Below are positions 9,311 through 63,035 of a DNA stretch of 64,000 nt, in pieces. Source of the stretch: Gemmatimonadota bacterium (GTDB lineage: Bacteria; Gemmatimonadota; Gemmatimonadetes; Gemmatimonadales; GWC2-71-9); contig JBGQLP010000009.1 in NCBI GenBank assembly GCA_041500125.1, positions 2,767 through 66,766 of the forward strand, read 5' to 3'. Numbering within the stretch: the first letter of the stretch is position 1; each line of letters opens with the position of its first letter. The notes below the pieces were generated by a model. It searched no databases and was not told the DNA's origin. It worked only from the letters and a program-made list of their open reading frames with translations. The position numbers were made by a program, and so were the translations under genes.

Positions 9311-9352
9311 GATCTCCCAAGCTGCACGACTGGTGCACGATCGGGAAGAAGC

Positions 9353-9397
9353 CTTCATACAAGCTTCACCTTCGATTCAGCGCGGGACCGGCAGCTT
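9353..9397 (+). promoter_or_regulatory. CTTCA-box array upstream of CBS gene
   Basis: CTTCA/CTTCA/ATTCA at 9353/9364/9375; CAGCTT at 9392. Confidence 0.7.
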
Positions 9398-18904: not shown

Positions 18905-18920
18905 TCGACGCCCTGGCGGC

Positions 18921-18986
18921 GTGAAGGGATTTTCATCGGTCCTTCATGACTGACTCAAGCCGGGTGGTTCACCTTACTCGTACCAT
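18921..18986 (+). promoter_or_regulatory. CTTCA-box array for the 19029-24741 operon
   Basis: TTTCA/CTTCA/ACTCA at 18931/18942/18953; TACCAT at 18981. Confidence 0.6.
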
Positions 18987-25521: not shown

Positions 25522-25538
25522 ATTTCTTCGGATGAAGG

Positions 25539-25583
25539 TTTCACGGCAGGTTCAGCGATCCTTCATCTGCGCCGGATTACCAT
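25539..25583 (+). promoter_or_regulatory. CTTCA-box array for the PRTase-hydrolase-EreA-USP operon
   Basis: TTTCA/GTTCA/CTTCA at 25539/25550/25561; TACCAT at 25578. Confidence 0.75.
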
Positions 25584-25612
25584 GGGAGCAAACCTCTTGG
25601 AGGAGTGCTCCC

Positions 25613-33136: not shown

Positions 33137-33142
33137 ACACAT

Positions 33143-33481
33143 ATGGAGCTACCCTTGCAGATCACCGCCCACAATCTCGCCCTGGCTCCGGCCGATGAGC
33201 AGGCGATCAGGGGCGCCGCTACCAAGCTGGACGAGTTCGCGTCTCGCATTCTCAGCTGCCGAGTCGCCATCGAGGGTGAGGGCGGCGGACATAGCGGCCG
33301 CCAATATCGGATCCATATCAAGCTGGATGTTCCGGGCGAGGAGATCGTGGTGCGACGCCGGTCGGACGAGACAATCCCCGTGGCGGTGCAGAAGGCCTTC
33401 AAGGCCGCCGGCCGAAGGCTGCAGGATCACGTGCGGCGGCAGCGAGGAGACGTGAAGCTTTCAGGAGGGCGCCGCAATTGA
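33143..33481 (+). CDS. HPF/RaiA-family ribosome-associated protein
   Basis: LQITAHN, CRVAIE, IKLDVPGEEIVV, AFKAAGRRL. Confidence 0.85.
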   Translation: MELPLQITAHNLALAPADEQAIRGAATKLDEFASRILSCRVAIEGEGGGHSGRQYRIHIKLDVPGEEIVVRRRSDETIPVAVQKAFKAAGRRLQDHVRRQRGDVKLSGGRRN

Positions 33482-33489
33482 CAAGGGAC

Positions 33490-33534
33490 TTTCATCCCAA
33501 CTTCATGATCGCTTCACTAGGTCGACGATACTTT
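33490..33534 (+). promoter_or_regulatory. CTTCA-box array plus -10 leading into a structured non-coding region
   Basis: TTTCA/CTTCA/CTTCA at 33490/33501/33512; TACTTT at 33529. Confidence 0.75.
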
Positions 33535-34444: not shown

Positions 34445-34451
34445 CAACTTC

Positions 34452-34484
34452 CTTCACGGACTCTTCACCCTGGATAGTTAGCAT
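34452..34484 (+). promoter_or_regulatory. CTTCA-box array plus -10, probable leaderless hemN promoter
   Basis: CTTCA at 34452/34463; TAGCAT at 34479-34484; ATG 34491 with no SD. Confidence 0.75.
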
Positions 34485-39916: not shown

Positions 39917-39966
39917 ATCGAAGTCCCACCCGGGTTGTTTGGATGCCTAAACTCGGGGTCCACTAA

Positions 39967-39993
39967 TGAGGCAATCATGAAAAGACTGTGAAA
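39967..39993 (-). promoter_or_regulatory. CTTCA-like array for GGDEF gene 1
   Basis: TGAGG/TGAAA/TGAAA at 39967/39978/39989; no clean -10 seen. Confidence 0.55.
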
Positions 39994-40176
39994 GACTGAT
40001 TAGATTAGGGACATCTTTCTTAAAACTTTCGACGCTCCCCCATATCCGGGCCTAGCAAGGCCTCGAATGCTGCTCTTCATTCAGAGCGCGGAAGCGGTGA
40101 TTTACCGACCTCCGGCCCAGGTGCTTGCGGGAACTGAGGTCAGCCTCGGAGCTCTTGCGTGCGTGGTGGTTCATGG

Positions 40177-41887: not shown

Positions 41888-41932
41888 AGGCTAGACAAAC
41901 TCGGATGAGGAAATCGTGAAGCAGCGGTGAAG
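41888..41932 (-). promoter_or_regulatory. CTTCA-box array plus -10 for cls
   Basis: TGAGG/TGAAG/TGAAG at 41906/41917/41928; TAGCCT (minus) at 41893-41888. Confidence 0.75.
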
Positions 41933-41951
41933 TTCGGCTTCCCCAGCAGCC

Positions 41952-43121: not shown

Positions 43122-44060
43122 TCAGACGTGGATAATGAGATCGCTCAAGGAACGACCCCGATGGAGGCGGGTGATGGCATCCGCGATGAGCGGCGCTACT
43201 GTGACCCGCTGGACCGCCAGGTCCGCCAGCGCGGTATCGCTGACTGTGTCGGTGACCAACAGGTGGGTGATCGGCAGGGTAGCCAGCCGCTCCACCACGG
43301 ACCCGACGAACAAGCCGTGGGTGGCCGCCACCATAACCTCGGGCAGGGCCCCGGCCTCGAGTAGGACAGCGATAGCCGCGGCCAGGGTGCCGCCCGTGCT
43401 TATCATGTCGTCCACGATCAGTGGCCGCAGCCCACGAACCTCGCCGGCCAGACCGTGCGTCTCCACGATGTCGCCGCCGACCCGGATCTTGTGAACCACG
43501 GCCGCCGGAATCTTCATGACCCTGGCCCAGTCATGAGCCAGCTTGATGGCACCGGCATCCGGGGCGACTACCACGCCGGGTTTCTGCGGGAGTGACGCAA
43601 CCGCAGCCGAGAGTGCCGGCAATGCCGTGAGGTGCTCGAGCGGCATCGGGAACATCGCCTCGAGCCCCGCCGAATGCAGATGGACCGCCACCACGCGGTC
43701 GATCTCCGCGCCCCGGAGCATCTCCGCAATCACGTGCGATCCTACCGCTTCGCGGCCGGTGGCACGGCGATCTTGCCGAGCGTAGCCGAAATAGGGCATC
43801 ACCGCAGTCACTCGCATCGCGCCGGCGCGCCGGCAGGCATCGGCCAGCAGCAGCAGTTGAAGCAGGTTGGCTTCGATGGGAGGGGTCGTCGGCTGAAGGA
43901 GGTACACGTCGCCATCCCGTACGCTTCCCCGCACGTCAACGTGCATTTCGCCGTCGGGAAAACGGGATAACTCGCAGTCGGCGAGGGAAACGCCGAGAGC
44001 TCGCGCTATTGCTCGACCAAGCGGTGGATTTCCAAGCCCCGCCAGCAGGATCAGCCGCAT
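43122..44060 (-). CDS. prs: Ribose-phosphate diphosphokinase (second copy)
   Basis: RFPDGE, PYFGYARQDR, VVAPDAG, IVDDMISTGGT. Confidence 0.92.
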   Translation of the reverse strand: MRLILLAGLGNPPLGRAIARALGVSLADCELSRFPDGEMHVDVRGSVRDGDVYLLQPTTPPIEANLLQLLLLADACRRAGAMRVTAVMPYFGYARQDRRATGREAVGSHVIAEMLRGAEIDRVVAVHLHSAGLEAMFPMPLEHLTALPALSAAVASLPQKPGVVVAPDAGAIKLAHDWARVMKIPAAVVHKIRVGGDIVETHGLAGEVRGLRPLIVDDMISTGGTLAAAIAVLLEAGALPEVMVAATHGLFVGSVVERLATLPITHLLVTDTVSDTALADLAVQRVTVAPLIADAITRLHRGRSLSDLIIHV

Positions 44061-44066
44061 GGCGCA

Positions 44067-44110
44067 AATCTACCGGCAAGGTATGAAGTCAGGTTGAAGA
44101 TCGCACGAAA
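44067..44110 (-). promoter_or_regulatory. CTTCA-box array plus -10, probable leaderless prs promoter
   Basis: TGAAG/TGAAG/CGAAA at 44084/44095/44106; TAGATT (minus) at 44072-44067; ATG 44060. Confidence 0.75.
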
Positions 44111-44128
44111 TCTGCATGACTCGAGCGC

Positions 44129-45680: not shown

Positions 45681-45713
45681 CTCCTCCAGGGTTCTCCACC
45701 ACTCCGGGATGAA

Positions 45714-45860
45714 GATGCGCTGCGGGTGACGCGACCGGCTGTTCCGACCGGTCTCGAGAGGCCGATCCCCGACTGCTGGAGCGGTCCCGACGGCATGTAC
45801 CGTTGCTTAGCGACACGGTATACTGAACCGCCGACCTGATGGCGCCAGCCGCAGCGCATC
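45714..45860 (-). ncRNA. Candidate ~147-nt structured RNA (sRNA or leader)
   Basis: Perfect 12-bp terminal stem (45860-45849 with 45725-45714) extended by 6 bp, plus internal hairpins; starts just after TAGAAT -10. Confidence 0.55.
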
Positions 45861-45864
45861 AACC

Positions 45865-45908
45865 ATTCTACACCACCCGCCTGAAGCGCCCGTGAAGACC
45901 GCGCGAAG
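45865..45908 (-). promoter_or_regulatory. CTTCA-box array plus near-consensus -10
   Basis: TGAAG/TGAAG/CGAAG at 45882/45893/45904; TAGAAT (minus) at 45870-45865. Confidence 0.8.
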
Positions 45909-45988
45909 GTTCCGCTCGCTTCGTATTCCGACGCTATCAAATCGTGACTTCCGCGGCGGTCCTATTCACTCAGGCTCCCCCGGTTCCT

Positions 45989-46235: not shown

Positions 46236-47432
46236 TCACCGGAATCGGAGTGTGGCTGCAAGACCGTCCACCGCGTCGGCCTCCGCACAGTCAGGGACTA
46301 GGACCACTCGCACTCGCTGGCGCAACGCCTCCTCGATGGCCTCATCAACCAGGTCGCGAACCGGTTTGGGCTGCCCCTCGTTCCGGCAGTCGCCCTTGGC
46401 CAGTACCAACCGGCCGGTGGCAGAACAGCGAAACCCCTGACCCTCGAGATTGTCGCGAAGGAACAGAGTGCGGACCTGGCCTTGGTGAAGCGCCCTCAAC
46501 GTCTCCCGTGCCCCGTTCACCGCCCATCCGCTGCCCACTGCATCATCCAGCCCCCTGAGCTCGGACTCGATGATCTTCCGGCTGTGCTCTTCTGCCAGCG
46601 ACAGGCTAGTCGCCTGGAGCTCGGTCGTACTGATGGCAGTCGGATTGAGCTTGACGGAACCCAACATGCGGTCGGCGATCCCCTCGGGGAGGAAGCGCGT
46701 CAGCGCGGCCGTATGGTCGGTTGATCCGGCGAGAACAACGCCGCGAACCGGGCGCGCCCGAAGAATCTCCTGGGCTCGCTGCACCACATTAGCGTAGTGC
46801 CGGTGGTGTTCCTCCTCCAGCCGGCGGTGATAGTCATGCTCACCCCAGCCGGGGGCGCCACCACGGTCAGAGTGAAACCCTCCACCCCGCGTGCTGGGAG
46901 CCGTCAGACATGCCTGCTCGGTAAGGCCCGCGGCGGTCACTTCGAAGAAGCGAGCATGCGCCCGATCGAACACGATAGTGAGAATGGGCTGGGCTTCCTC
47001 AACTGACGCGACCAGTTCTCCGATCCACGGAGTATCATCCAGCATCAGCCGGGTTCGGTGGACTCGGGTAAGGGCGGCTGCCTCGAACAGGCCCAATTCC
47101 TCGCAAGCAAAGATGGCCAGCCCGGGAGTATGCGGCAGATCGCGCGGATGGCCCAGGTAGCCAAGAATCTGGTTGAGGTCTCTCTCAACGGCCAGGCGCT
47201 CGTCGCGGGCCAAAGCCAGCACCATAGGATCGGCCCGCAAGGCCTTCACCCGGTCCTTGAATTCCGTGATGAGGTAGCTGGCTCGGGTGCGGTCCCGGGG
47301 CTTTAGCCTGATATAGCAGGACAGGATGTGATGACTGCCGGCCGGAATTGCCGTCAGCCGCTGGATCAATCCCGGCACATCGGTGGACACGCTCAGCGTG
47401 GCCGGCGACCTTCCTAATATCTGCCCTGTCAT
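46236..47432 (-). CDS. Bacterial archaeo-eukaryotic release factor-like (baeRF / eRF1-pelota fold) protein
   Basis: GLAIFAC, DRAHARFF, VVLAG, AVNGARETLRALHQGQVRTL, DLVDEAIEEAL, C-terminal GLAATLRFR; ATG 47432. Confidence 0.85.
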   Translation of the reverse strand: MTGQILGRSPATLSVSTDVPGLIQRLTAIPAGSHHILSCYIRLKPRDRTRASYLITEFKDRVKALRADPMVLALARDERLAVERDLNQILGYLGHPRDLPHTPGLAIFACEELGLFEAAALTRVHRTRLMLDDTPWIGELVASVEEAQPILTIVFDRAHARFFEVTAAGLTEQACLTAPSTRGGGFHSDRGGAPGWGEHDYHRRLEEEHHRHYANVVQRAQEILRARPVRGVVLAGSTDHTAALTRFLPEGIADRMLGSVKLNPTAISTTELQATSLSLAEEHSRKIIESELRGLDDAVGSGWAVNGARETLRALHQGQVRTLFLRDNLEGQGFRCSATGRLVLAKGDCRNEGQPKPVRDLVDEAIEEALRQRVRVVLVPDCAEADAVDGLAATLRFR

Positions 47433-47469
47433 GTGTTGCTCCCTCATCTGGTAGATTGATGCCAGATGC

Positions 47470-47907
47470 CTACGCCAGAATGCGGGGCTTCTGCTGCTCG
47501 AGCAGCTGGCCGATCGAGCCCGCCTCCCCCACGACCACCCCCAGAACGTCATCCATACTGAGAAGCCCGACGACCCTATTTTCCTCGCCGGTCACGACCA
47601 AGCGGCGAGTCCCCTGCCGCGCCATGATTGCAACCGCGTCCTCGATGGGGGTGTGCTCGTCCACACAGTGAACCGGGCTCGTCATCACCGCGGCGATTAC
47701 CGTCTCGTCAGGATCCAGGCGTCCGGCAATGCAACGCACTGCGAGATCTCGGTCCGTGAGGATGCCTATCGCCTGCCTGGGATGATCGGTTCCCACGACA
47801 ACCAGGGTTCCAACGTCGTGCTCGGCCATGCGGGCCGCGGCTCTCCTGATACTCTCGCCGCCGGATGCCGTCGCGACGACCCGGCTGCAGATCCTGCCTA
47901 CTGACAT
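47470..47907 (-). CDS. CBS-pair protein
   Basis: VGTLVVV..GILTDRDL; RRLVV..VGLLSMDD. Confidence 0.92.
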   Translation of the reverse strand: MSVGRICSRVVATASGGESIRRAAARMAEHDVGTLVVVGTDHPRQAIGILTDRDLAVRCIAGRLDPDETVIAAVMTSPVHCVDEHTPIEDAVAIMARQGTRRLVVTGEENRVVGLLSMDDVLGVVVGEAGSIGQLLEQQKPRILA

Positions 47908-47970: not shown

Positions 47971-48015
47971 AATGTGCTGCCGCGCGAGTGAAGGAATCAT
48001 GAAGTCTGGGGGAAG
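47971..48015 (-). promoter_or_regulatory. CTTCA-box array for the CBS-baeRF operon
   Basis: TGAAG/TGAAG/GGAAG at 47989/48000/48011; CACATT (minus) at 47976-47971. Confidence 0.75.
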
Positions 48016-48042
48016 TTCTGGCTCGCAAGGAGTGAAAGCGAG

Positions 48043-48141: not shown

Positions 48142-48585
48142 ATGAAACTCACGAAGGCGCTGCCCACCTCGGTCGCCACGGTGCGCGACGAGTTCGATCG
48201 GCTGTTTGACCGATTCTGGAACACCGGCCTGTTCGGACCTACGCCCCGTGTCTTCGAGACGATGTGGCAGCCGAGCCTCGATTTCTCGGAGAATGACAAG
48301 GAGTACATCGTGCGGCTCGAGGTGCCGGGCATTCCCAAAGAGGACCTCGAGGTCAACGTGGATGGCCGGACTCTGACCGTCTCGGGACGGCGGGATTTCG
48401 AACGGGAAGAAAAGACGGAGGAGTACTTCTATCGCGAGCGGGAGGGGGGCAAGTTCGTCCGCACGGTCCAGCTCCCAGGATCGGTCGACCAGTCGAAGGT
48501 GGCAGCCACCTATCAGGATGGAATCATGACGATCCGGCTGCCGAAGACCGAGCCGAGCGCCAAGACGCGGATCCAGATCAAGTAA
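48142..48585 (+). CDS. Hsp20 / alpha-crystallin small heat-shock protein
   Basis: EVPGIPKEDLEV, RER.GGKFVRTVQLP, ATYQDGIMTIRLPK, terminal IQI. Confidence 0.95.
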   Translation: MKLTKALPTSVATVRDEFDRLFDRFWNTGLFGPTPRVFETMWQPSLDFSENDKEYIVRLEVPGIPKEDLEVNVDGRTLTVSGRRDFEREEKTEEYFYREREGGKFVRTVQLPGSVDQSKVAATYQDGIMTIRLPKTEPSAKTRIQIK

Positions 48586-48747: not shown

Positions 48748-50766
48748 TCAGATCGATCGAGGAGGGAAGGCTGCTCGGAGCGCGTTAAGGATCACGGCGA
48801 CGTCGATCGCCTCCTGCAGCAACGCCCCGGCTACCGGCGGGATGTAGCCGAAGCTTGCGACTACCATCGCCGCTCCACTCAGCCCCAGCCCCGCCCAGAT
48901 GCTCTGCCGGGCCAGTCGCAGGGTGCGGCGGCTGATCGTGATAGCCTCGGCAACCCGACTGGGGTCGTCCGCCAGGATCACCGCGTCGGCAGCCTCGGCG
49001 CTGATGCCTCCGCCGCCGGAGGCCAGCGCGATCCCAACCGTCGCGGTGCTGAGTGCCGGCGCGTCGTTGGTCCCGTCCCCAACCATGAGGACGCGCTCCC
49101 CTTCCTTCATGAGGCGTTGGACGTAGGCGACCTTCTCTTCCGGCAACAGGTCGCCATGCGCCTCTTCGATCCCCACCGCACGTGCCACTGCCGTAGCGTT
49201 GGCCTGATCGTCACCAGAGAGGAGGACGATCTTCGAGAGACCCAGGGAGCGGAGCTCGGGGATGAAGCCGACCAGCTCCGGCCGCAGCCGATCGGCGTAC
49301 TCGATCAATCCGGCTCCCTGCCCATTGACCGTGACGTAGGCTCTAAGTCCAGCGCCCGGTATCTGGGTCAGCAGGCCCTGGAGGGGAAGTTTAGCGGCAG
49401 GATGACGGTGCACCACAAACGACCACCCACCTACCGTCACCTGCTGGCCCTCCACCTGGCCACTGACTCCCTGGCCGGGTGCCTCGATGACGTTCTCCCC
49501 CGGTGGAAGCTCGATGCCGCGTTCGAGTGTTTCCTGGACTAACGTGCGGGCGAGCAGATGCCCGGACCCGTGCTCCACGCTGCCGGCAAGCCGGAGTACC
49601 TCAGGCTCGGTGAACCCAGGTGCGGGGAGCACCCGGGCGACCCGGGGCCGTCCGATCGTCAGGGTTCCTGTCTTGTCGAAGACGGCTACGCCGACCCGGC
49701 CGAGCTGCTCCAGCGCGCTGCCGTGGCGGAAGATGATGCCCCGGCGGGCGGCGCGGTTGATGCCACCGACCACCGCCACCGGCGTGGCGAGAATGAGCGG
49801 GCATGGGGTTGCGACGACCAGCACGGCGAGCACCCGAGTGGGATCGCCGGATAAGAGGTAGGCTCCGACACAAACGGCAAGGGTAATGGGGGTGAACCAG
49901 GCGGCGTATCGGTCGGCCAGCCGCTGGAGCGGCGACTTGCTCCCCTGAGCGGTGCGGACCAGGTCCACAATCCTGGCATATTGGCTTTCACTCGCGGGAG
50001 CCGTCGCGCGAACGGTGAGGGGACTCTCGAGGTTGAGGCTGCCACTGAGCAGCTTGATGCCGGCGTCAGCGCTCACCGGAACCGGCTCTCCCGTGAGCCG
50101 GGATGCGTCCACGTGGGAGCGGCCTTCGAGCACCACGGCATCGCAGGCCAGCAGCTCCCCAGGCCTGAGCAGGAGCTCGTCGCCCACCCTGACCATCTCC
50201 GCCGCCACGTCGGTCACCTCGCCACCCAGCATCCGATGGGCCAGGCGGGGAGCGGCTGCTTCGAGCTCTCGAACCGCCTCCGACGCCCGGCCTTGCGCGT
50301 ATCGCTCGAGCGCCTCGCCGCCGGTCTGCATGAGGACCACGATGAGACCGGCGAGCGGCTCCCGCAGGATCAGCGCGGTGATGATGGCCAGCATCGCCAC
50401 GAGATCCGCGGCGAAACGGCCCCCGGCAATGCCCCGCAGGGTCCGCCAGACGACTGGCGCGCCGGTGAGTGCCAGCCCCGCGCTCCACAGCAGGGACGCC
50501 ATGCCGGGGCGCCCCGCTATATGGAGGAGCAGCCCGGTCAGAATGAAAAGAAGAGCGCCGGCCGGAAGAAGGTAGAAACGGCCCGGCAGGTGGTGGGCTA
50601 GAGCGCGGGCGAGATCTCGGCCCCGTCCCCGCCGCGGCGGAGGCTGAACCCCACGCCCCGGACCGTGGCCAACAGCTGCTCCTTGGCGGCCTCGCTGAGC
50701 TTCCGGCGCAGATTGCCCACGTGGACGTCCACCACGTTGCTCTCCGGATCGAAGTGCATGTCCCAT
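48748..50766 (-). CDS. Heavy-metal P1B-5-type ATPase (start uncertain)
   Basis: ATPCP, DKTGT, QSIWAGLGLSGAAM (QX4GX3SX3M), PVAGALLQEAIDVAVILN. Confidence 0.88.
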   Translation of the reverse strand: MGHALRSGEQRGGRPRGQSAPEAQRGRQGAAVGHGPGRGVQPPPRRGRGRDLARALAHHLPGRFYLLPAGALLFILTGLLLHIAGRPGMASLLWSAGLALTGAPVVWRTLRGIAGGRFAADLVAMLAIITALILREPLAGLIVVLMQTGGEALERYAQGRASEAVRELEAAAPRLAHRMLGGEVTDVAAEMVRVGDELLLRPGELLACDAVVLEGRSHVDASRLTGEPVPVSADAGIKLLSGSLNLESPLTVRATAPASESQYARIVDLVRTAQGSKSPLQRLADRYAAWFTPITLAVCVGAYLLSGDPTRVLAVLVVATPCPLILATPVAVVGGINRAARRGIIFRHGSALEQLGRVGVAVFDKTGTLTIGRPRVARVLPAPGFTEPEVLRLAGSVEHGSGHLLARTLVQETLERGIELPPGENVIEAPGQGVSGQVEGQQVTVGGWSFVVHRHPAAKLPLQGLLTQIPGAGLRAYVTVNGQGAGLIEYADRLRPELVGFIPELRSLGLSKIVLLSGDDQANATAVARAVGIEEAHGDLLPEEKVAYVQRLMKEGERVLMVGDGTNDAPALSTATVGIALASGGGGISAEAADAVILADDPSRVAEAITISRRTLRLARQSIWAGLGLSGAAMVVASFGYIPPVAGALLQEAIDVAVILNALRAAFPPRSI

Positions 50767-51299
50767 ACTTTCTCCAGGAGCGTAGTGCGCCGGACGACTT
50801 CTTCGGGGTGAAGCAGGAAATACTCGAGCAGTTGAAACTCCTTGGGGGTGAGATCCAGCCGCTTTCCATCTATGGTCGCGACATGCCGGAGCCGGTCAAG
50901 CGCAATCGGAGGATAGCGCAGGACTTCCAGCCGCTCGGCACCCCCACGGCGGTGGAGGGCCCGGATGCGGGCCAGGAGCTCGTCAAACTCGAACGGCTTC
51001 GCGAGATAATCGTCGGCCCCGGCATCCAGCCCGCGCACGACGTCCTCCACCGCGTCGCGTGAGGTCAGCATCAGGATGGGCGTAGCCCGTCCCTCCCGCC
51101 TCAGCTCGGTCGCGACCTGGAAGCCGCTCTTCTTGGGGAGCACAATATCGAGCAGGATGACATCGTAATCGTACACGTGAGCCAGCAGGGTGGCCTCGTC
51201 GCCATCCGGCGCCACGTCCACGATATACCCTTCTTCCTTCAGCCCCTGTTCGATGAACCCGGCGACCTTCCGGTCGTCTTCCACCACGAGGATCTTCAT
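50598..51299 (-). CDS. OmpR/PhoB-family response regulator
   Basis: REC (VVEDD, LLD, GADDYLAKPF) plus winged helix (LTPKEFQLLEY, VW, SNVVDVHVGNLRRKL, TVRGVGF). Confidence 0.96.
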   Translation of the reverse strand: MKILVVEDDRKVAGFIEQGLKEEGYIVDVAPDGDEATLLAHVYDYDVILLDIVLPKKSGFQVATELRREGRATPILMLTSRDAVEDVVRGLDAGADDYLAKPFEFDELLARIRALHRRGGAERLEVLRYPPIALDRLRHVATIDGKRLDLTPKEFQLLEYFLLHPEEVVRRTTLLEKVWDMHFDPESNVVDVHVGNLRRKLSEAAKEQLLATVRGVGFSLRRGGDGAEISPAL

Positions 51300-51306
51300 G
51301 CGCGGT

Positions 51307-51361
51307 AATCTGGGGAGTAGTGGTTAAGGTCCTCCGGAAGCCTTCATGAAGCTTTCTTCAC
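51307..51361 (-). promoter_or_regulatory. Autoregulatory box array for the response regulator
   Basis: GGAAG/TGAAG at 51336/51347; palindrome ATGAAGCTTTCTTCAC at 51346-51361; CAGATT (minus) at 51312-51307. Confidence 0.6.
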
Positions 51362-52602
51362 GTTCGTGGGCTAGCGGGAAGCTCGAGCACAAAGCAGCCG
51401 CCGCCGCCGGCGGGCCGGGCCAGCGCCCGTAGCTCCCCGCCGAGCAGTCGGGCCAGCCGCCGGGAGAGAGGTAGCCCCAGCCCCATGCCGCGGGTGTCAC
51501 CCACGTCCTTGCTGATGTAGATGTCGAAAATTCGCTCGATCTCGCTCTCCTCGATCCCGGATCCCTGGTCCAGCAGGGTGTAGATCACGATGGATTCCCG
51601 GCCGGTGACCTCGAGGCGGACTGTGCTCCCCTCCGGCGTATGCTTGATGGCATTGCCCAGCAAGTTGATCAGGATCTGCTCCACCCTGCTGGCGTCGGTC
51701 TCGCAGCTGGGAAGATCCGGGGCGACGTCTACCTGGAGCAGGATCCGTTTGGCCTCTGCTGCTGGTGTGACCCGAGCGACCGCCCGCCCCGCCATGGAGC
51801 CTGGGTCGGTGGCCCGGATCACCGGTCGCAACCGGTCTTCGTCGAGTCGGCTCAGATCGAGCAGGTCGTTGATGAGTCCGACAGCCTGCTTGGCCGAGTC
51901 GAGCACCTCGAATGCGGCTTTGGGGACGGTGGCCGGGTCTTTCTTGCGCACCATCATCTCTGCCCAGCCGTGCACCGCGGCCAGAGAGTTCCTCAGTTCG
52001 TGGTTCACCATGGCGAAGAAGCGCTCCCGGGTTCGATGGAGCTGCTGCACTTCCTCCAGCAGCCGGGCGCTCTCTTCATGCAGCCTCGCGTTCTCGACCG
52101 CCGCAGCAGTGTTGGCCGCAAGGAGCACGGCGATGTGCTCATCCTCGTCGGTGAACCGCTCGCCCCCCAGCTTCTCCGTGAGATACAGATTACCGAAAAT
52201 GCCCCGTTTCCCCACGATCGGGACCCCAAGGAACGATTGCATTGGAGGATGGTGGGGCGGGAAACCGTAGGACTCGGGGTGTTTGGTGAGGTCGGGGAGG
52301 CGAATCGGTCTCGCCGCGCGGATTACCAACCCCAGAATGCCATGGCCCCGCGGCACGTCTCCGATAAGCGCACGTTGCTGGGCATCGATGCCGTGGGTGA
52401 CAAAGCTCTCCAAGAGCCGGCCATCCGGTGCCAGCACCCCAACGGCGGCGAATCGGGCTCCGATGACCTCGGCCGCCACCTCTACTACGCGCTCGAGCAC
52501 CCCTTCCAGGGAGACTTCGGTGATCAAGGAGGAGGCGGCTAAGACCAGCCGCTCCAGCCGTGGGCTGCCCGGAGCCGGACGGGCGATTGATGTCTGAGTC
52601 AC
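51358..52602 (-). CDS. Sensor histidine kinase: DosS-type heme-GAF + HisKA + HATPase
   Basis: GAF with HPESYGFPPHHPPMQSFLGVP..GNLYLTEK; H-box NHELRNSL; NLLGNAIKHT, DQGSGI, GMGLGL; GTG 52602 likely start. Confidence 0.92.
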   Translation of the reverse strand: MTQTSIARPAPGSPRLERLVLAASSLITEVSLEGVLERVVEVAAEVIGARFAAVGVLAPDGRLLESFVTHGIDAQQRALIGDVPRGHGILGLVIRAARPIRLPDLTKHPESYGFPPHHPPMQSFLGVPIVGKRGIFGNLYLTEKLGGERFTDEDEHIAVLLAANTAAAVENARLHEESARLLEEVQQLHRTRERFFAMVNHELRNSLAAVHGWAEMMVRKKDPATVPKAAFEVLDSAKQAVGLINDLLDLSRLDEDRLRPVIRATDPGSMAGRAVARVTPAAEAKRILLQVDVAPDLPSCETDASRVEQILINLLGNAIKHTPEGSTVRLEVTGRESIVIYTLLDQGSGIEESEIERIFDIYISKDVGDTRGMGLGLPLSRRLARLLGGELRALARPAGGGGCFVLELPASPRT

Positions 52603-52648
52603 TCCCAAAGCTATAGCGAAAGCTCGCCCGTCCGAAACCCCGAAAAAC

Positions 52649-52693
52649 ATTCGTACTGCCTTAATGCTTTCTTCACGGCCCCGCCGGTAGGCT
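52649..52693 (+). promoter_or_regulatory. CTTCA-box array plus -10 for the USP operon
   Basis: ATTCG/CTTAA/CTTCA at 52649/52660/52671; TAGGCT at 52688. Confidence 0.7.
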
Positions 52694-52713
52694 GCAAGCA
52701 AAGGAGGAGGCAG

Positions 52714-53574
52714 ATGAGACTACGGCACATTCTGGCAGCGACCGACGAGTCGGACGCGGGGCGGCAGGCGGTCAGGACCGCGACAGCTCTGGCGTCCCGC
52801 GCTTCTGCCCGGGTCACGATCCTGCGGGTGATTGCGGTCGAGGCTACGCGGCGTCTGGTGAGCGTCGGCCACGGCACGGCTCCCACGAATGGGGAGGACG
52901 AGGCTGCGCTGATGTATCTGCGCCGGTGGCTCGAAGCCGATGTCCTCTCGCCGGATGCGACCGAGGCGACCGAGCTTGCCATCGCCTGCGGGATCCCCGG
53001 TATCGAGATCTGCCGCTTTGCCGAGCAGGCCGAGGCCGATCTCCTGGTGCTCGGCCGCAAGCGCCATTCCCCAATGATGCGCCTCCTGTTGGGCGATACC
53101 GCCGACGCGGTGGCCCGGAGGAGCCGATTCCCCTGCCTGTTCGTACCTCCCGCAGCAGCTGAGATCAGGAAGGTGCTGGTGGCGCTGGACGGCTCGGACC
53201 GGGGCCTCAACGTACTGAACCAGGCCTGCGACTTCGCCCGGTACGCGGGCGCTGTGGTGGAAGCAGTCACGGTAGAACGGAGACCGGGGGACGAGCCCTT
53301 ACAGCTTGTTCCCATGCTGCCGGTGGCTCGGAGCTCCTCGCTGGAGATCCGGGTGCGCGAGGTGTTGGCCCGGGACGGGTTCCCCGACGCTGCCCTGGCC
53401 ATCCGGCGAGGGGAAATCCTCGAGCAAGTTGTGACTCAGGCGCAGGAGACTGGAGCCGACGTGCTGGCGATTGGCTATCACCGAGGTGGCCCGCCGGGCG
53501 TGCTCGAGGCCGGCAGCACCGCGCGGCGGCTGGCTCATGCGGCGCCGTGTGCCGTTCTAACCATCCCGCTCTAG
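52714..53574 (+). CDS. Tandem universal stress protein
   Basis: ILAATDES, LLGDTADAV, GSTARRLAHAAPCAVL. Confidence 0.9.
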   Translation: MRLRHILAATDESDAGRQAVRTATALASRASARVTILRVIAVEATRRLVSVGHGTAPTNGEDEAALMYLRRWLEADVLSPDATEATELAIACGIPGIEICRFAEQAEADLLVLGRKRHSPMMRLLLGDTADAVARRSRFPCLFVPPAAAEIRKVLVALDGSDRGLNVLNQACDFARYAGAVVEAVTVERRPGDEPLQLVPMLPVARSSSLEIRVREVLARDGFPDAALAIRRGEILEQVVTQAQETGADVLAIGYHRGGPPGVLEAGSTARRLAHAAPCAVLTIPL

Positions 53575-55857: not shown

Positions 55858-56518
55858 ATGACCAACTCAAGACGAATCGCAGGACTGCCCGGTCAACGGC
55901 ACCTTGCTCTTTGTTGCCGGCCTCTCGATCGTCCGGGCTCACAATCGGTGGAAGGACGGCTGGCCCGTACTGGTAACCCTGATGGGGTGGTTTGCCATCC
56001 TGGGTGGTCTGGCCCGGATGTTTGCACCGGCGGGAGCATTCGTAGTCGGGGTCGGCCTCCCCTTTGTGTGGGGAGGCGGTGGGGAACGGTCGCTCGCCGG
56101 CCCCTTGGCGATGACCCTGGCGGTTGGCGTGCTACTCACCTTGGCCTTCACCGCGGTGGCGTTTCTGGTCTCTCTCCTGTTCGAGGACCGAGCCACGGGG
56201 CTGGGCGTTGCGATACTGCTCTGGCTTGCCGCAACCGCGCTCTATGACGCGTTCCTCGTGTTCGTGGTGACCGCATTCGCTGACTATCCGCTGGAAACGC
56301 CGCTCATCGGGCTGACCCTGCTCAACCCGGTAGATCTGGGACGGGTGCTTCTCATACTCCAGCTCGACACCGCCGCATTGATGGGATACACCGGCGCCGT
56401 GTTCGAGCGCTTCTTCGGGAGCATGCTCGGAGTTGCCATCGCAGCCTCCGCCCTGACGGCCTGGACGGTGTTGCCCTTTGGTCTGGGATTCACCCGGTTC
56501 CGGGCGAAAGACTTCTAG
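55858..56518 (+). pseudogene. Chimeric remnant: broken small membrane-protein gene fused to the C-terminal half of a NosY-type ABC permease
   Basis: SD+ATG 55858 is out of frame with 55904; from ~56030 YD..FADYPLE..LLNPVDLGRVLLILQLDTAALMGYTGA is NosY-like; N-half missing. Confidence 0.65.
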
Positions 56519-56934
56519 TCCCTGCGAGTCGCGGAGGAGACGCGGGCCCTTGACCAAGCGTGACGGGCAAAGGCGAGCGCCGCGGCCGATTCAGCCGCGC
56601 GGCCGGCTACAGGTACCCAGGAAGGGGCGGCGAATGCCTGCCCCAGACCAGCGGCCAAGACGCCAAGATTGAGAAGCAGGAGGGCAACCCAGGCGAGCCG
56701 TTCGTTGCCGCGCGCTAAAGGACCCCGAAGCCGCGGCAGGATCCAGTACGCCACACCGAACGCGAGCTGTACCACCCACCCTACCAGCAGGATCTCGGCA
56801 TGGACCGGGCGGAGGCGTAAAACTGTGAGGGGAAGTCGTAGTGCCGGAGCCGCCAGCATGATCGCCCCCAGGGTGAAGCCCAGCCCAAGGTAGAGGAGGG
56901 CGGCCCGGACGCACCAGACGCTCAAGCCCTGCAC
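56515..56934 (-). CDS. 4-TM membrane protein (heme-copper oxidase subunit-I-fragment-like)
   Basis: VRAALLYL, HAEILLVGWVVQLAFGVAYWILPR. Confidence 0.75.
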   Translation of the reverse strand: MQGLSVWCVRAALLYLGLGFTLGAIMLAAPALRLPLTVLRLRPVHAEILLVGWVVQLAFGVAYWILPRLRGPLARGNERLAWVALLLLNLGVLAAGLGQAFAAPSWVPVAGRAAESAAALAFARHAWSRARVSSATRRD

Positions 56935-56935
56935 G

Positions 56936-57334
56936 TCAGCGCTCCCTGACGCGAGGCCATGTGTTAATCACAAAGGCCCAGCCGCCCGCGAGCTGCAGGA
57001 GTGCGGCAACAACAAGGAGCCAGCCCGTCGGCGCCCCGATGGCCCGAGCCGGCTCACCGAAGATTCGGAGGAGCAGGCCGGCATTGAGCAGCCAGTAGCT
57101 CGCCCATCCCAGCCGTTGGCTCCCCCGTGATCCCTCGGATGACCGTTTCGGGAACATCCAGAACGCCACTCCGAAGATGAGCTGGGTCAGCCACCCAAGG
57201 ACGAGCATATGCACGTAGGTGGGCCAGAGGACCGAGCTCCAGGTGGTCAAGGCCACCTGGAGAATGCCAGTAAGCAGGGACGCCAACAGGTAAATGAGGG
57301 CGGTACGGATGAACCAGCGACTGAGTCCGGGCAG
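56936..57334 (-). CDS. 4-TM membrane protein, paralogue of the neighbour; CTG or mutated start
   Basis: In-frame extension LPGLSRWFIRTALIYL upstream of 57286; HMLVLGWLTQLIFGVAFWMFP. Confidence 0.65.
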   Translation of the reverse strand: MPGLSRWFIRTALIYLLASLLTGILQVALTTWSSVLWPTYVHMLVLGWLTQLIFGVAFWMFPKRSSEGSRGSQRLGWASYWLLNAGLLLRIFGEPARAIGAPTGWLLVVAALLQLAGGWAFVINTWPRVRER

Positions 57335-59767: not shown

Positions 59768-60514
59768 TCACCCCGACTGAGTCCCCAGTAGCCGCTCGAA
59801 CTCTTGGCGGACGATCTCATAGCACTCGCAGGCAGCCCGCTCCAAGCCAGGTCCATTCCGGATCGTAATCACACCGCGCCGATAGCTGATCAGCTTAACC
59901 CGCTGGAGTGCCGCAGCGGTCTCGGATACAGTGGCTCGCCTCACGCCGAGCATTTGCCCCAAGAACTCGTGGGTGAGCAGATACTCGTTGCGCCTTACTC
60001 GATCACGGACGATAAGAAGCCAGCGCGCAAGACGCTGCTCGACGGAATGCGCGCGATTACAGGCGGTGCTCTGCGAGACTTGTGTCACTAACGCTTGAGT
60101 ATAGCGCTCCAGGAGCTGCCGAAGTCGCCCTTCCCTGTGCGCCTCTCGGCGGAAGACCGCAATGTCCAAACGTTCTCCTTCACCGGCGACCTGGACCATC
60201 GCCCTTCCCGTGGAAGTGATGGCGCCGAGGAATACCGGGAGTCCCACCAACCCCTCATTTCCGATGGTGCCGACCTCGACCGACCCGCCGTCAAAGAGGG
60301 CGAGTATCGAGGCGACGGCGTTGATGGGGAAGTACACTGCTTCGATAGGCCGGTTCGGCTCCCAGAGAATCTGCTTCTGTTTCATGGGCACCGTAGCCAG
60401 CTCGGACCGGAGTCGTGCGTAGTCCTTGGGCGGAAGGGCAGCGAGGAGCTGGTTTGCGTTCTGCTCGGCGCGGGGTGGCGGTTTGGTGGTTGACCTTGCT
60501 CTCGTCCTGGGCAT
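59768..60514 (-). CDS. Crp/Fnr-family transcriptional regulator
   Basis: NQLLAALP, EVGTIGNEG, ACNRAHSVEQRLARWLL, LTHEFLGQMLGVRRATV, ACECY. Confidence 0.93.
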   Translation of the reverse strand: MPRTRARSTTKPPPRAEQNANQLLAALPPKDYARLRSELATVPMKQKQILWEPNRPIEAVYFPINAVASILALFDGGSVEVGTIGNEGLVGLPVFLGAITSTGRAMVQVAGEGERLDIAVFRREAHREGRLRQLLERYTQALVTQVSQSTACNRAHSVEQRLARWLLIVRDRVRRNEYLLTHEFLGQMLGVRRATVSETAAALQRVKLISYRRGVITIRNGPGLERAACECYEIVRQEFERLLGTQSG

Positions 60515-60889: not shown

Positions 60890-61330
60890 ATGAGGCAAGT
60901 GTCCGCGGCCGCAACTGAGGCGGCGCGCCAACTCTGGGCGCACGAGGGGCTCGACGCCGGTGGGCCCGAGGAAATGGCTGCGACCGCGGAACAGGGGTGT
61001 GCCCGGCTTCGGGCGGGGTTGACCCGCTGGATAGGGTCCGACGGCTACCGCGCGCTGGTCGATCGCGCGCTCGAGCAGGCGCGGGCGGGACACCCCGCGC
61101 TCACCGGCCTCCAGTGCCAGGCCGGCGACGTGCAGGGAGTCGCGGCGGCCATGGGAGTACATGGTGCCGCCCCGGTGATGGAGGGCATCTTGGCGCTGGT
61201 CGCGCTGCTGATCGAGCTGCTGAGCCGCGTCATCGGAGAGGAGATGGCCGTGCGATTGGTGGAACAGGCATGGGCTGGGAGCGCGCGCGCGACCGCAAGT
61301 GCCGCCACAGAAGGAGTGGGTGATGGTTAA
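60890..61330 (+). CDS. Hypothetical protein overlapping the start of the KaiC-like ATPase
   Basis: LTRWIGSDGYRALVDRAL..LLSRVIGEEMAVRLV; overlaps next start. Confidence 0.75.
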   Translation: MRQVSAAATEAARQLWAHEGLDAGGPEEMAATAEQGCARLRAGLTRWIGSDGYRALVDRALEQARAGHPALTGLQCQAGDVQGVAAAMGVHGAAPVMEGILALVALLIELLSRVIGEEMAVRLVEQAWAGSARATASAATEGVGDG

Positions 61331-63023
61331 GAAGGATGGCCGCACGAAGGCCGCGCCCAAGAAGGTCCCGCTCGATGCGCTAGCGACCGGGGTGCCGGGC
61401 CTCGACGAAGTATTGGGAGGAGGCCTGCCGCAGCTCTCCTTCAACCTGATCGCCGGCGATCCCGGCTCGGGCAAGACCACGCTGGCCATGCAGATGATGT
61501 TCGCCGGCGCCACCGTCGCGCGCCCCGGCCTGTACTTCACCCTCCTGGGCGAGCCGTCGTTGAAGATGCTGCGATACCAGCAGCAGTTCGACTTCTTCGA
61601 TGCGAGCCGCATCGGGTCGGAGGTGCACTTCCTCAACCTCAGCGAGCAGGTCCTGGCCGGGGATCTGAACGCCGTCCTGGAGCGGATCGTCGAGGAGGTC
61701 GGCCGCCTGCACCCTGGCATCGTGGTCATCGACTCGTTCCGGACGCTGGCACGCACGAGCCCGGCGGTCCAAGGAACGGATCCCCAGCTCGAGCACTTCG
61801 TGCAGCGGCTCGCACTCCACCTGACGACCTGGGACATCACGTCGTTCCTCGTCGGGGAGTACACCGAGCAGGAGTTCCGCAACCCGATATTCACCGTGGC
61901 CGACGGTATCGTCTGGCTGACCCAGGCGGTGCACCGAAATTCCGTGGTCCGGAAGCTCCAGGTGCTAAAGATGCGAGGCAGGGCAGGGATGCCCGGGGTC
62001 CACACCCTTCGGATGACCGACAAAGGGGTCCAGGTCTTCCCCCGGATACTCGAGCGTTCGCATGGCGCGCGCGCGAAGACCGATCGCCGACTGTCGACCG
62101 GCGTGCCGGGTCTCGACGAGATGATGGGGGGAGGCGTCCAGGCGGGGGACTCGATGATCTTGGCGGGGCCGACTGGAACGGGCAAGACGACGTTCGCGAC
62201 CCAGTTCGTCGCCGCCGGGCTCCGCCACGGCGAACAGTGCGTGATCGCCGTGTTTGAGGAACACCCGGAGGACTACCTGGAACGGGCGACGAGCTACGGG
62301 GTGGACTTCAGGGAGGCGGTGCGCCAGGGCAAGCTGCGCATCATCTATCTGCGCCCCCTCGATCTCTCGGTGGACGAGACCCTCGAGGAGATCCGCGTGT
62401 CGGTGAAAGAGGTCGGCGCGACCCGCGTCGTCATCGATTCGATCTCCGGCTTCGAGATGGCGCTGGCCCCGACCTTCCGCGAGGACTTCCGCGAGTCGCT
62501 CTACCGGCTGGTCGGCGCGCTCACCGGCCTCGGTGTCACCATGTTCATGACCGTCGAGGTCACGGAGCATGAGGGCCTCCAGTTCACCAACAACCGGGTC
62601 TCGTTCCTGACCGACATCATCGTCATCCAGCGCTACGTGGAAATCGAAGGCCAGCTCCGCAAGGTACTGGCGGTGGTCAAGATGCGCGGGAGCAGCCATA
62701 GTGGTGACTTCCGGGCCTACGAGATCACCGGGAACGGCGTGCTGCTGCGCGAGGGGCTCCGGGACTATCAGGGTATCACCACTGGCGTCCCCACCGGGCG
62801 GTTGCAGCGCCGGCAGCCGGCGTATCCGGGATTGACCGAGCAGGAGGGACGGGTACTCGAAATACTCATCCGGTCGGGGGCAGAGTCGGCGGAAGCGATC
62901 GCGGAGGAGGTGGGGCTGCCGCCAAGCGATCTCGATCCGATTCTGGAGCGTCTGACCCAGCTGGCCTACGTCAGCCGCAAAGGAACCCGCTACCAGGGCG
63001 TGGCGCGTCCCAGCAGTTCCTGA
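61323..63023 (+). CDS. Double-domain KaiC-like (RAD55/GvpD) ATPase with C-terminal wHTH-like extension
   Basis: TGVPGLDE twice; Walker A GDPGSGKT and GPTGTGKT; VIDS twice; KMRG twice. Confidence 0.92.
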   Translation: MVKKDGRTKAAPKKVPLDALATGVPGLDEVLGGGLPQLSFNLIAGDPGSGKTTLAMQMMFAGATVARPGLYFTLLGEPSLKMLRYQQQFDFFDASRIGSEVHFLNLSEQVLAGDLNAVLERIVEEVGRLHPGIVVIDSFRTLARTSPAVQGTDPQLEHFVQRLALHLTTWDITSFLVGEYTEQEFRNPIFTVADGIVWLTQAVHRNSVVRKLQVLKMRGRAGMPGVHTLRMTDKGVQVFPRILERSHGARAKTDRRLSTGVPGLDEMMGGGVQAGDSMILAGPTGTGKTTFATQFVAAGLRHGEQCVIAVFEEHPEDYLERATSYGVDFREAVRQGKLRIIYLRPLDLSVDETLEEIRVSVKEVGATRVVIDSISGFEMALAPTFREDFRESLYRLVGALTGLGVTMFMTVEVTEHEGLQFTNNRVSFLTDIIVIQRYVEIEGQLRKVLAVVKMRGSSHSGDFRAYEITGNGVLLREGLRDYQGITTGVPTGRLQRRQPAYPGLTEQEGRVLEILIRSGAESAEAIAEEVGLPPSDLDPILERLTQLAYVSRKGTRYQGVARPSSS

Positions 63024-63035
63024 AGCGGAGCTGAC

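Follow-up and report, generated by a model that had tools for sequence, protein, structure and literature searches.

A putative heme-GAF sensor kinase and its OmpR-type partner in a stress-gene island of a Gemmatimonadota bacterium

Does a heme-based gas sensor of the kind known from mycobacteria work on another class of kinase in another phylum, and which genes would it control there? The question is raised by a gene coding for a soluble sensor histidine kinase (51358..52602, minus strand) in a stretch of 64,000 nucleotides from a soil-dwelling member of the Gemmatimonadota, which the names of close homologs assign to the Gemmatimonadales (assembly GCA_041500125.1, contig JBGQLP010000009.1, positions 2,767 to 66,766 of the forward strand), hereafter called the window. 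Heme-GAF gas sensing has so far been studied almost only in the mycobacterial DosS/DosT-DosR system. From the letters of the window, an earlier reading (the original prediction) had proposed that a DosS-type heme-GAF was swapped onto a class I kinase paired with an OmpR-family regulator, giving a parallel dormancy switch that sits inside its own regulon. The explanation that we favour as a whole, with a probability of roughly two thirds, is a cytoplasmic heme-based gas-sensing two-component system running a regulon of dormancy-type genes marked by a TGAAG box.

The kinase, its GAF domain and its partner

The kinase frame (51358-52701, minus strand) is open over 447 aa, up to a TTG at 52701. 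Its likeliest true start is the GTG at 52602, giving 414 aa, because most of the 120 homologs listed are 412-415 aa long, because the ATG at 52650 (the start in one database entry, of 430 aa) falls within a conserved non-coding repeat, and because the start codon of relatives comes only 5-8 nt after a -10-like hexamer. This hexamer (TAGAAT, TATTGG) was seen in many relatives (loci L014, L017, L021 and others), and its closeness to the start suggests that their kinase transcripts are leaderless. All the motifs quoted in the original prediction, namely GIDAQQRALIGDVPRGHGILG, HPESYGFPPHHPPM, GNLYLTEK and the H-box NHELRNSL, were present in the translated frame. Pfam recognised a single GAF stretch (GAF_2, E 2e-18; GAF_2 and GAF together residues 63-203 of the 447 aa frame), followed by HisKA (PF00512, E 3.2e-13) and HATPase_c (E 8.9e-20). 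Neither HisKA_3 nor a second GAF (GAF-B) was matched by Pfam in the kinase, and no membrane segment was evident from its sequence. The HisKA domain, that is the dimerisation and histidine phosphotransfer (DHp) domain (51838..52029, minus strand), holds the predicted phospho-acceptor His201 within NHELRNSL, as judged from the Pfam match, the position of the motif and a structural match to HK853. In the catalytic domain (51373..51696, minus strand) the N, G1, F and G2 boxes are intact (NLLGNAIKH, DQGSGI, IFDIY and GMGLGL). The H-box and these four boxes are the sequence features of class I (HisKA) sensor kinases. Databases label such proteins 'signal transduction histidine kinase' (JGI) or 'GAF domain-containing sensor histidine kinase' (NCBI).

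The GAF domain (52093..52515, minus strand; about residues 30-170 of the 414 aa protein) was identified by Pfam GAF_2, by phmmer against all PDB sequences, and by Foldseek. The top five phmmer matches were the GAF-A domains of DosT (2vzw, E 3.9e-43) and of DevS/DosS (2y8h, 2y79, 4ynr and 2w3d, E 6e-36 to 7e-35, with 4.2e-35 for 4ynr and 7e-35 for 2w3d); the matches ranked after them were ordinary kinase cores. With 44-55% identity to DosS/DosT-type domains, the likeness in sequence to their GAF-A is far above chance. The original prediction had suggested aligning the domain to GAF-A of DosS and DosT, and in this alignment the two heme-pocket residues matched column for column. His118 (codon 52249..52251, minus strand), the second His of GFPPHHPPM, was aligned with the His that precedes PPM in DosT and DevS, and is the predicted proximal heme ligand. 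Tyr140 (codon 52183..52185, minus strand), in NLYLTEK, was aligned with the Tyr of LYLT in the same two proteins, and is the predicted distal Tyr. The corresponding residues are reported to be His149 and Tyr171 in DosS, His147 and Tyr169 in DosT (PMC4082495). Over 81 diverse homologs, selected as described below, the His118 column, the PPM motif and several pocket columns were invariant, and the Tyr140 column nearly so; the columns of the ligand His, of the distal Tyr and of the position of DosS Glu87 were invariant or nearly so both in these 81 and in a set of 34 homologs.

The Glu87 column, located by means of the E87G and E87A mutant entries of DosS present in the alignment, is occupied by Gly55, as in DosT (Gly85), and this Gly is nearly invariant in the clade of the query. 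Gly at this position, the DosT state, has been tied to a stable O2 complex (PMC4082495). The claim that the domain is the same sensor as that of DosS holds for GAF-A homology and has to be amended here, as by sequence the GAF is DosT-like, not DosS-like, at this position. An AlphaFold2 model of the kinase (mean pLDDT 82.9 overall, about 74-94 over the GAF blocks) gave a GAF that superposed with Foldseek on DosS GAF-A (2w3h, TMt 0.89, rmsd 1.6 Å; 4ynr_B, TMt 0.91, rmsd 1.5 Å), and a kinase core resembling HK853-type structures (TMt about 0.7) and also the WalK and ZraS cores. In the model, the C-terminal helix of the GAF continues unbroken for 69 residues into the first DHp helix (residues 168-236 of the 430 aa form), so that the GAF passes straight into the DHp. 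We conclude that the GAF is, as far as sequence and modelled fold can tell, a homolog of the DosS/DosT-type GAF-A; by analogy with these proteins, it would bind heme b at His118. The protein falls within the Dos GAF-A family by sequence, but lacks three features of the DosS/DosT kinase family, which are two GAFs, HisKA_3 and a NarL-type partner.

The next gene (50598..51299, minus strand) codes, as had been read from the sequence, for a regulator made of a receiver (REC) and a winged helix (Response_reg, E 9.3e-30; Trans_reg_C, E 8.9e-27). E7-D8-D9, D51 (in the ILLDIVLP context), T78 and K101 are all in place, as in the OmpR/PhoB family. The HMM comparison proposed in the original prediction came out as expected for both proteins, with HisKA and no HisKA_3 in the kinase, and Trans_reg_C in the regulator. 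In all of 29 loci of the phylum, the kinase gene is followed immediately by an OmpR-type regulator gene of the same strand (76-95% identity, two of the 29 regulator copies being cut by contig ends). Among named public genomes, it adjoins the kinase in 19 of 21 HisKA-type loci, including that of a Chloroflexi metagenome-assembled genome (MAG); one of the two exceptions is a locus that ends at a contig edge, and the Chloroflexi locus has its regulator upstream of the kinase. The scanned neighbours of HisKA_3-type kinases were REC plus GerE in six cases out of six. The output class of the regulator tracks the DHp class (HisKA with OmpR, HisKA_3 with GerE), which is usual in two-component systems, and the HisKA/OmpR combination is no special swap, contrary to what had been thought. 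Adjacency shows that the kinase and the OmpR-type regulator form a pair.

The best NCBIfam model for the regulator was that of the heavy-metal regulators CopR/CusR/CztR/SilR (TIGR01387), with 235.1 bits for a cutoff of 279.2, and none of the NCBIfam equivalog cutoffs was reached (199.4 vs 296.2 for the PhoB model). The gene that follows, probably co-transcribed with the regulator, codes for a P1B-type heavy-metal ATPase (48748..50502, minus strand, likely start ATG 50502; Pfam, and NCBIfam TIGR01525 with 506.7 bits). It was present downstream of the regulator in 12 of the 29 short loci, and also in genomes G121, G122 and G045. The membrane motif of this ATPase is TPCP, which marks the little-studied P1B-5 group (perhaps specific for Ni or Fe), and a metal-binding domain is lacking at its N-terminus.

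How common is such a kinase? A HMMER scan with the GAF alone yielded 1588 cluster representatives at E < 1e-30. From the best 150 of them, 80 proteins of 330-1100 aa with the motif G[FYW]P..HP.M were kept, making 81 with the query, and those dropped were 28 shorter motif-bearing fragments, 41 giants (3 with the motif) and one protein without it. The outputs recognised by Pfam in the 81 proteins were HisKA_3 (36), HisKA (22), GGDEF (4), HisKA_2 (2) and HWE_HK (2). In a maximum-likelihood tree of 119 GAF domains, the heme-motif GAFs formed one clade (SH-aLRT 98), apart from GAF-B-like domains. HisKA-linked domains were spread over several clades, the starred branches of the tree forcing at least 7 changes of that label, and the query GAF fell in an eight-member clade (support 90), all but one of its members being HisKA-linked. 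At the genome level, a kinase match at E 1e-40 or better, a threshold that also lets in some generic HisKA kinases (29-37% identity), was obtained in 117 of 301 sampled genomes of the phylum, 101 of 124 of the family of the window, and 10 of 17 of its genus. Five of the genus members without a match had no Dos-type GAF at all. When the best 80 loci of named public genomes were sorted by kinase type, 21 were HisKA-type (19 Gemmatimonadota, one Chloroflexi MAG and one Myxococcales MAG) and 58 were HisKA_3-type, all from Actinomycetota; one further locus was cut by a contig end.

We conclude that HisKA-linked heme-GAF kinases are common and make up several old clades. The wiring is not unique, and the notion of a one-off rewiring has to be abandoned. 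Such domain shuffling is commonplace, which makes the surprise moderate. Some HisKA kinases carry two or three heme-motif GAFs in tandem (metagenome representatives P0122, P0124 and P0126); judging from these sequences, multi-heme versions of the GAF sensor exist. In the genome of the window, 99.27% complete, no second Dos-type GAF was found, the other GAF matches being only 22-29% identical, and a second, canonical Dos system was ruled out on this ground. Because it has no companion with a DosS-type GAF, and so no HisKA_3 version beside it, the kinase is the sole DosS-type switch of its genome, not a parallel one. Full-text searches of the literature, with subscription journals and supplementary files outside their reach, returned no account of a HisKA kinase that has a Dos-type heme GAF and an OmpR partner, nor of its operator; within that reach, the suggestion that the system is undescribed is not refuted. 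The literature on PolS-PolR, MSMEG_0244/0246 and PdtaS deals with other systems.

A direct repeat at the kinase and across the island

When the 350 nt upstream of the kinase were aligned for 26 relatives and the window, a direct repeat was found by eye, RTGAAG-N5-RTGAAG, usually completed by a third and weaker unit, RCGAAG (full form RTGAAG-N5-RTGAAG(-N5-RCGAAG)), with a period of 11 bp. It occupies a consistent place in 23 of the 26 relatives and in the window, and in 21 relatives no more than one of the 10 core letters deviates. The copy of the window, GTGAAG N5 ATTAAG N5 ACGAAT (52648..52676, minus strand, 28.2 bits), lies between the kinase gene and a divergent gene for a tandem universal stress protein (USP), and is a candidate site for the regulator. 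Direct repeats spaced by one helical turn are a hallmark of OmpR/PhoB-family binding. Its position at the operon of the pair and its direct-repeat geometry point to the adjacent regulator as the protein that binds this box. No sigma-70 consensus promoter was found in the kinase/USP intergenic region (52400-52800 scanned), as expected for activator-dependent promoters. In loci L014 and L017 two repeats abut the hexamer TAGAAT, at the place where a -35 element would be. An inverted, TGAAG...CTTCA-like arrangement was noticed in L029 and L031, both of genus g10, and in L019, which keeps the repeat; in L022 and L029 of g10 (L031 being the third locus of this genus) the kinase frames are open over 689-714 aa. 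The g10 loci may have a variant operator or a fusion.

The whole 3.48-Mb genome was scanned on both strands with a 29-nt weight matrix built from the 23 relatives, the window being left out. Sixteen sites scored at least 18 bits; the control, the same genome reversed and uncomplemented, gave none at this level, its maximum being 17.6 bits. Ten of the 16 strong sites are located within the window, which represents 1.8% of the genome (binomial p 3e-14). On a gene map that was curated by hand from Pfam-supported open reading frames (ORFs), 8 of these ten are intergenic. The box found upstream of the kinase marks many promoters of the surrounding island, and the pair very probably sits inside its own regulon, in agreement with the original prediction as far as sequence allows one to say.

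The box at the kinase is 38 nt from the divergent tandem-USP gene, USP1 (52714..53574, plus strand; Pfam Usp twice). A survey of genomes for the pair next to USP genes had also been suggested: a divergent USP gene was present upstream of the kinase in 17 of the 29 loci. A box of 28.1 bits (47988..48016, plus strand) stands between a CBS-pair gene (47470-47907, minus strand) and hsp20 (48142-48585, plus strand). The next ones in score are at the junction of a PAS-GGDEF gene with a phospholipase D (PLD) gene (41905..41933, plus strand, 26.5 bits), and after the RtcB-HPF genes, upstream of HemJ/HemN (33489..33517, minus strand, 26.4 bits), where a weaker box (34440-34468) precedes hemN by 23 nt. 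The PAS-GGDEF gene at 38951-39916 (minus strand) has a box 50 nt upstream (39966..39994, plus strand, 22.6 bits). Another box (45881..45909, plus strand, 21.7 bits) lies in the intergenic region 45681-45988, flanked by small ORFs with no Pfam match. The divergent starts of DUF302 (minus strand) and of a phosphoribosyltransferase (PRTase) gene (plus strand) share a box at 25538..25566 (minus strand, 20.8 bits). A further one is found between Prs (43122-44060, minus strand) and the DUF2267/PRTase genes (plus strand) at 44083..44111 (plus strand, 20.6 bits), and one between a lysylphosphatidylglycerol-synthase-like gene (minus strand) and a CBS-pair gene (9428-9829, plus strand) at 9352..9380 (minus strand, 19.3 bits). 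The box at 18919..18947 (minus strand, 18.5 bits) is 15 nt upstream of a zinc alcohol dehydrogenase (Zn-ADH) gene (17897-18904, minus strand). Weaker sites of 15.9-17.7 bits, in the range of the control, precede the gene for an enzyme like pyruvate phosphate dikinase (PPDK), BON / acetate kinase, hemN, the second PAS-GGDEF gene and a divergent USP pair. Outside the window, the top site of the genome (29.9 bits) and another of 23.9 bits are upstream of cytochrome c genes.

Further strong sites were counted around the kinase in relatives: 4 in G121 and 3 in G197, both of the same genus, and one each in G122 and G045. The boxes of relatives adjoin homologs of USP, CBS and Hsp20 genes, other genera included, and in G121 and G045 they adjoin CBS and Hsp20 genes.

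Gene content of the island

The island extends from about 5.8 to 60.5 kb of the window, and its contents were assigned by Pfam. Stress proteins comprise two CBS-pair proteins, a BON protein, five tandem-USP proteins, Hsp20 and a chaperonin of Cpn60/TCP1 type. Central metabolism is represented by the PPDK-like enzyme, acetate kinase, Zn-ADH, a fatty-acid desaturase and GlpD; nucleotide metabolism by a nucleoside-phosphorylase-like and a Prs-like protein, a further Prs, two PRTases and an erythromycin-esterase-family protein. There are also ribosome and RNA genes (RtcB, a ribosome hibernation factor and a baeRF release-factor-like protein), genes for heme synthesis (HemJ-like of UPF0093, and HemN), for signalling and lipids (two PAS-GGDEF proteins, PLD and a Crp-family regulator), for transport and redox functions (a P2-type ATPase, the P1B-type ATPase, VIT1 and a ferredoxin), and members of the uncharacterised families DUF302 and DUF2267. 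The closest solved relative of the CBS protein is Rv2626c; that of USP1 is TTHA0350 from Thermus, not a mycobacterial USP.

Among the published members of the DosR and OsdR regulons are USPs, HspX, Rv2626c, RtcB (Rv2631), Rv0079 (a ribosome factor), Rv0571c (a PRTase), PPDK, Zn-ADH, protoporphyrinogen oxidase and a Crp-like regulator (PMC5309233, PMC5069765). Counterparts of these families are present in the window according to Pfam, and because of these shared gene families the island appears to be functionally equivalent to the dormancy regulon of actinobacteria. Gemmatimonas phototrophica responds to 10% O2 by induction of hemN, a USP and the cbb3 oxidase, for which no responsible regulator is named (PMC11406998). 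Parts of the baeRF, CBS, hsp20, regulator, USP1-3 and ferredoxin genes are covered by contigs of RNA libraries from rice paddy and soil (two studies), 95-99% alike, which is weak evidence as such contigs neither prove transcription nor rank genes. Over the kinase body (51616-52216), none at 95% or above was found in four runs, which by the nature of the method proves nothing.

Several neighbouring genes deserve a description of their own. Two adjacent small membrane ORFs (139 and 116 aa; 56515-57286, minus strand) have weak COX1-like matches, below the Pfam cutoff; G197 has homologs of both close to the kinase, and G045 has a homolog of one. Together the two ORFs may represent a split protein, either like a heme-copper oxidase or related to NO. 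At 19514-21984 (plus strand), the nucleoside-phosphorylase-like gene overlaps the Prs-like gene, and with the second Prs and two PRTases in the same island, the density of phosphoribosyl pyrophosphate and nucleotide salvage genes is unusual for a stress island. One PRTase gene is beside the erythromycin-esterase-family gene (25532-28259, plus strand); the two domains are fused in the DosR-regulon protein Rv2030c. The Cpn60/TCP1-family chaperonin gene (22527-24143, plus strand, E 4.2e-68) stands apart from any groES. RtcB is followed by the ribosome hibernation factor at 31658-33481 (plus strand), and the baeRF gene (family 10) is at 46236-47552 (minus strand); an association of baeRF with the hibernation factor (HPF) is known (PMC6514570), and the RtcB-HPF and baeRF genes of the island match it. 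At the end of the window (61299-64000, plus strand), a KaiC-like double ATPase with a C-terminal TrmB-like helix-turn-helix precedes a PAS-HisKA kinase, whose gene continues beyond the last letter of the window, and these genes may constitute a separate clock-like or stress signalling module.

Proposed mechanism, alternatives and known systems

The mechanism that we propose is as follows. A kinase dimer would hold heme b in its single N-terminal GAF, with His118 as proximal ligand and Tyr140 as distal hydrogen-bond partner, by analogy with DosS and DosT. The gas sensed would be O2, and probably also NO/CO, Gly55 giving the pocket a DosT-like open form. If the logic of DosT and DosS applies, bound O2 would keep the kinase off, and the kinase would be on, autophosphorylating His201, when its ferrous heme is deoxy or carries NO/CO. 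According to the model, the signal would travel along the continuous GAF-DHp helix into the class I HisKA four-helix bundle, with no second GAF between. The phosphoryl group would then pass to Asp51 of the adjacent OmpR-family regulator. To judge from the geometry and position of the boxes, the phosphorylated regulator would bind head-to-tail to the 11-bp-phased RTGAAG repeats, over or next to the -35 of promoters devoid of a sigma-70 consensus, and activate its own operon (kinase, regulator and P1B ATPase) together with genes of the island. Predicted targets are the five tandem-USP genes, hsp20, the CBS-pair proteins, hemJ/hemN, the PAS-GGDEF cyclases, the Prs and PRTase genes, the PPDK-like gene and the ADH gene and, elsewhere in the genome, two cytochrome c genes. 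What we infer in this scheme is regulon membership, the signal logic and heme binding.

A number of observations weigh against it. The on/off logic, like the ligand and heme binding itself, is carried over from domains of 44-55% identity, and the box could be bound by another OmpR-type regulator. The repeat is absent upstream of the kinase in the three g10 loci; no site of 18 bits or more was found around the kinase in G161, of the same genus g10 (40 kb scanned), and G039, of another genus, has a single one, of 18.0 bits. Two of the ten strong sites of the window fall inside called N-termini, those of PLD and of a PRTase, the called starts being provisional. The orientation of the box varies as well: the repeats point towards the gene at the kinase, and away from it at most single-target promoters. 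The exact pattern RTGAAGN5RTGAAR speaks in favour of the scheme, as it occurred 45 times vs 10 in the backward control in five congeneric genomes with the kinase, and 16 times vs 9 in five congeneric genomes without it; this is a modest contrast between kindred genomes, one of which (G057, in the group without kinase) is flagged unpublished, so that the comparison is supporting only. One congener with neither the kinase nor a Dos-type GAF, G031, is an outlier of its group with 8 pattern matches, 4 of them on one contig (G031:C35), which hints that a related regulator with another sensor may use the same box there.

Other explanations were considered for the pair and its island. The sensor and the pairing may be as described, with a heme that reports NO, CO, H2S or the ferric/ferrous redox state, the island then being a nitrosative or redox stress regulon and not a hypoxic one. 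The DosS/DosT heme does bind NO and CO, and the choice between gas and redox is unsettled even for DosS (PMC4082495); a role of DosS in H2S binding is claimed in the abstract of a preprint (10.1101/2021.06.21.449194), and the two COX1-like ORFs and the cytochrome c genes are near or under boxes. We find this explanation unlikely, however, as the Gly at the Glu87 position is the state linked in the literature to a stable O2 complex (PMC4082495), and as the boxed hemN (an O2-independent enzyme) and USP genes are typical low-O2 genes, both induced at 10% O2 in a member of the phylum (PMC11406998). The GAF might even keep a DosS-like sequence and bind no heme, with another small ligand or none, so that the kinase would answer to something else. 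GAF domains bind many ligands, and the single-GAF context differs from that of DosS/DosT; yet this is highly improbable given that little or no variation is seen in the ligand His, PPM, the distal Tyr and the pocket columns among 81 homologs that include HisKA_3, Dos-type proteins, that the heme-motif GAFs form one supported clade apart from GAF-B-like domains, and that the model superposes on DosS GAF-A at 1.5-1.6 Å.

The remaining explanation bears on the regulon rather than on the ligand. Control by the pair could be limited to its own operon, P1B ATPase included, and possibly the USP gene next to it, for instance in metal or heme homeostasis, the TGAAG repeats of the island being bound by another OmpR-family protein or by the Crp-family protein encoded at 59768-60514. 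The heavy-metal model that fits the regulator best, although below its cutoff, the P1B ATPase found in 12 of 29 loci, the presence of a Crp-family gene in the island and the pattern matches retained in the kinase-less G031 all speak for it. The kinase, however, has a heme-GAF and no membrane or periplasmic metal-sensing part, and the box present at the promoter of the pair in 23 of 26 relatives is the very box enriched across the island. Crp/Fnr proteins bind palindromes, not 11-bp direct repeats, and the Crp-family protein has no N-terminal Cys cluster in its sequence. The FNR-type palindrome TTGATN4ATCAA was not enriched in the 64 kb, with one match (at most one mismatch) vs 0.47 expected, at position 3020, away from the island promoters. 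Control of the island by FNR/FixK was rejected for this reason. Restriction of the pair to its own operon seems rather improbable to us, and the heme-based gas-sensing system with a TGAAG-box regulon remains the explanation that we favour.

A broader interpretation, which we put forward tentatively, takes the DosS/DosT-type GAF to be an ancient O2-sensing module that came to be joined to outputs of several classes. The dormancy genes would form a module that can be transferred as a set, and phyla would have exchanged the regulators wired to it. The form with a single GAF, HisKA/OmpR and TGAAG repeats would govern a dormancy island, accessory in part, in Gemmatimonadota, with sporadic occurrence in Chloroflexota and Myxococcota, and hypoxic dormancy like that of mycobacteria would be widespread among soil bacteria. 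A sensor domain of this kind here feeds a class I kinase and, in a phylum other than that of DosS and DosT, a regulator of OmpR type; with a predicted operator and a target list at hand, it can now be tested directly whether the wiring of a regulon has been exchanged. The kinase would also offer a simpler, single-GAF model from a non-pathogen for how heme ligation reaches a kinase, and it suggests how the abundant soil Gemmatimonadales survive O2 fluctuation, for example in flooded paddy soils.

How does the system compare with those already known? With DosT (Rv2027c) and DosS/DevS (Rv3132c) of M. tuberculosis it shares GAF-A homology, the proximal His, the distal Tyr, the fold and the solubility of the kinase, but DosS and DosT have GAF-A plus GAF-B and a HisKA_3 core, whereas the present kinase has one GAF and a class I HisKA DHp. 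The partner is an OmpR/PhoB-type winged-helix protein, unlike DosR, which is of NarL/GerE type. The target families (USP, Hsp20, CBS, RtcB, ribosome hibernation factor, PRTase, PPDK, ADH, ferredoxin and P-type ATPase) resemble those of DosR/DevR and of OsdK/OsdR of S. coelicolor, and like OsdKR (PMC5069765) the system sits among its target genes, which here are predicted. The operators would differ, as the sites of OsdR are GC-rich palindromes (PMC5069765) and the one predicted here is an 11-bp TGAAG direct repeat; DosS, DosT and OsdK, moreover, belong to Actinomycetota, and this system to Gemmatimonadota. Over its full length, the kinase model was best matched by a bacteriophytochrome kinase, BphP of P. 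aeruginosa (PDB 9eut, Foldseek E 7.4e-21), which also combines a tetrapyrrole-binding sensor of the GAF class, a long helix, HisKA and HATPase_c. Identity is only 18%, however, and bacteriophytochromes sense light by a linear bilin in a PAS-GAF-PHY arrangement, in contrast to the heme b-type GAF predicted here. On the output side, REC plus Trans_reg_C and predicted tandem repeats with an 11-bp period recall class II activation by PhoB/OmpR at the pho box, and in some relatives (L014, L017) the repeats abut a -10-like hexamer and replace the -35; unlike the pho box, the sequence is RTGAAG and its orientation to the target gene varies. Finally, the regulator resembles CopR/CusR/CztR/SilR by its top-scoring NCBIfam model (TIGR01387) and by the P1B ATPase gene downstream, but it scores under the curated cutoff of that family, and its partner kinase is a cytoplasmic heme-GAF protein instead of a periplasmic metal sensor.

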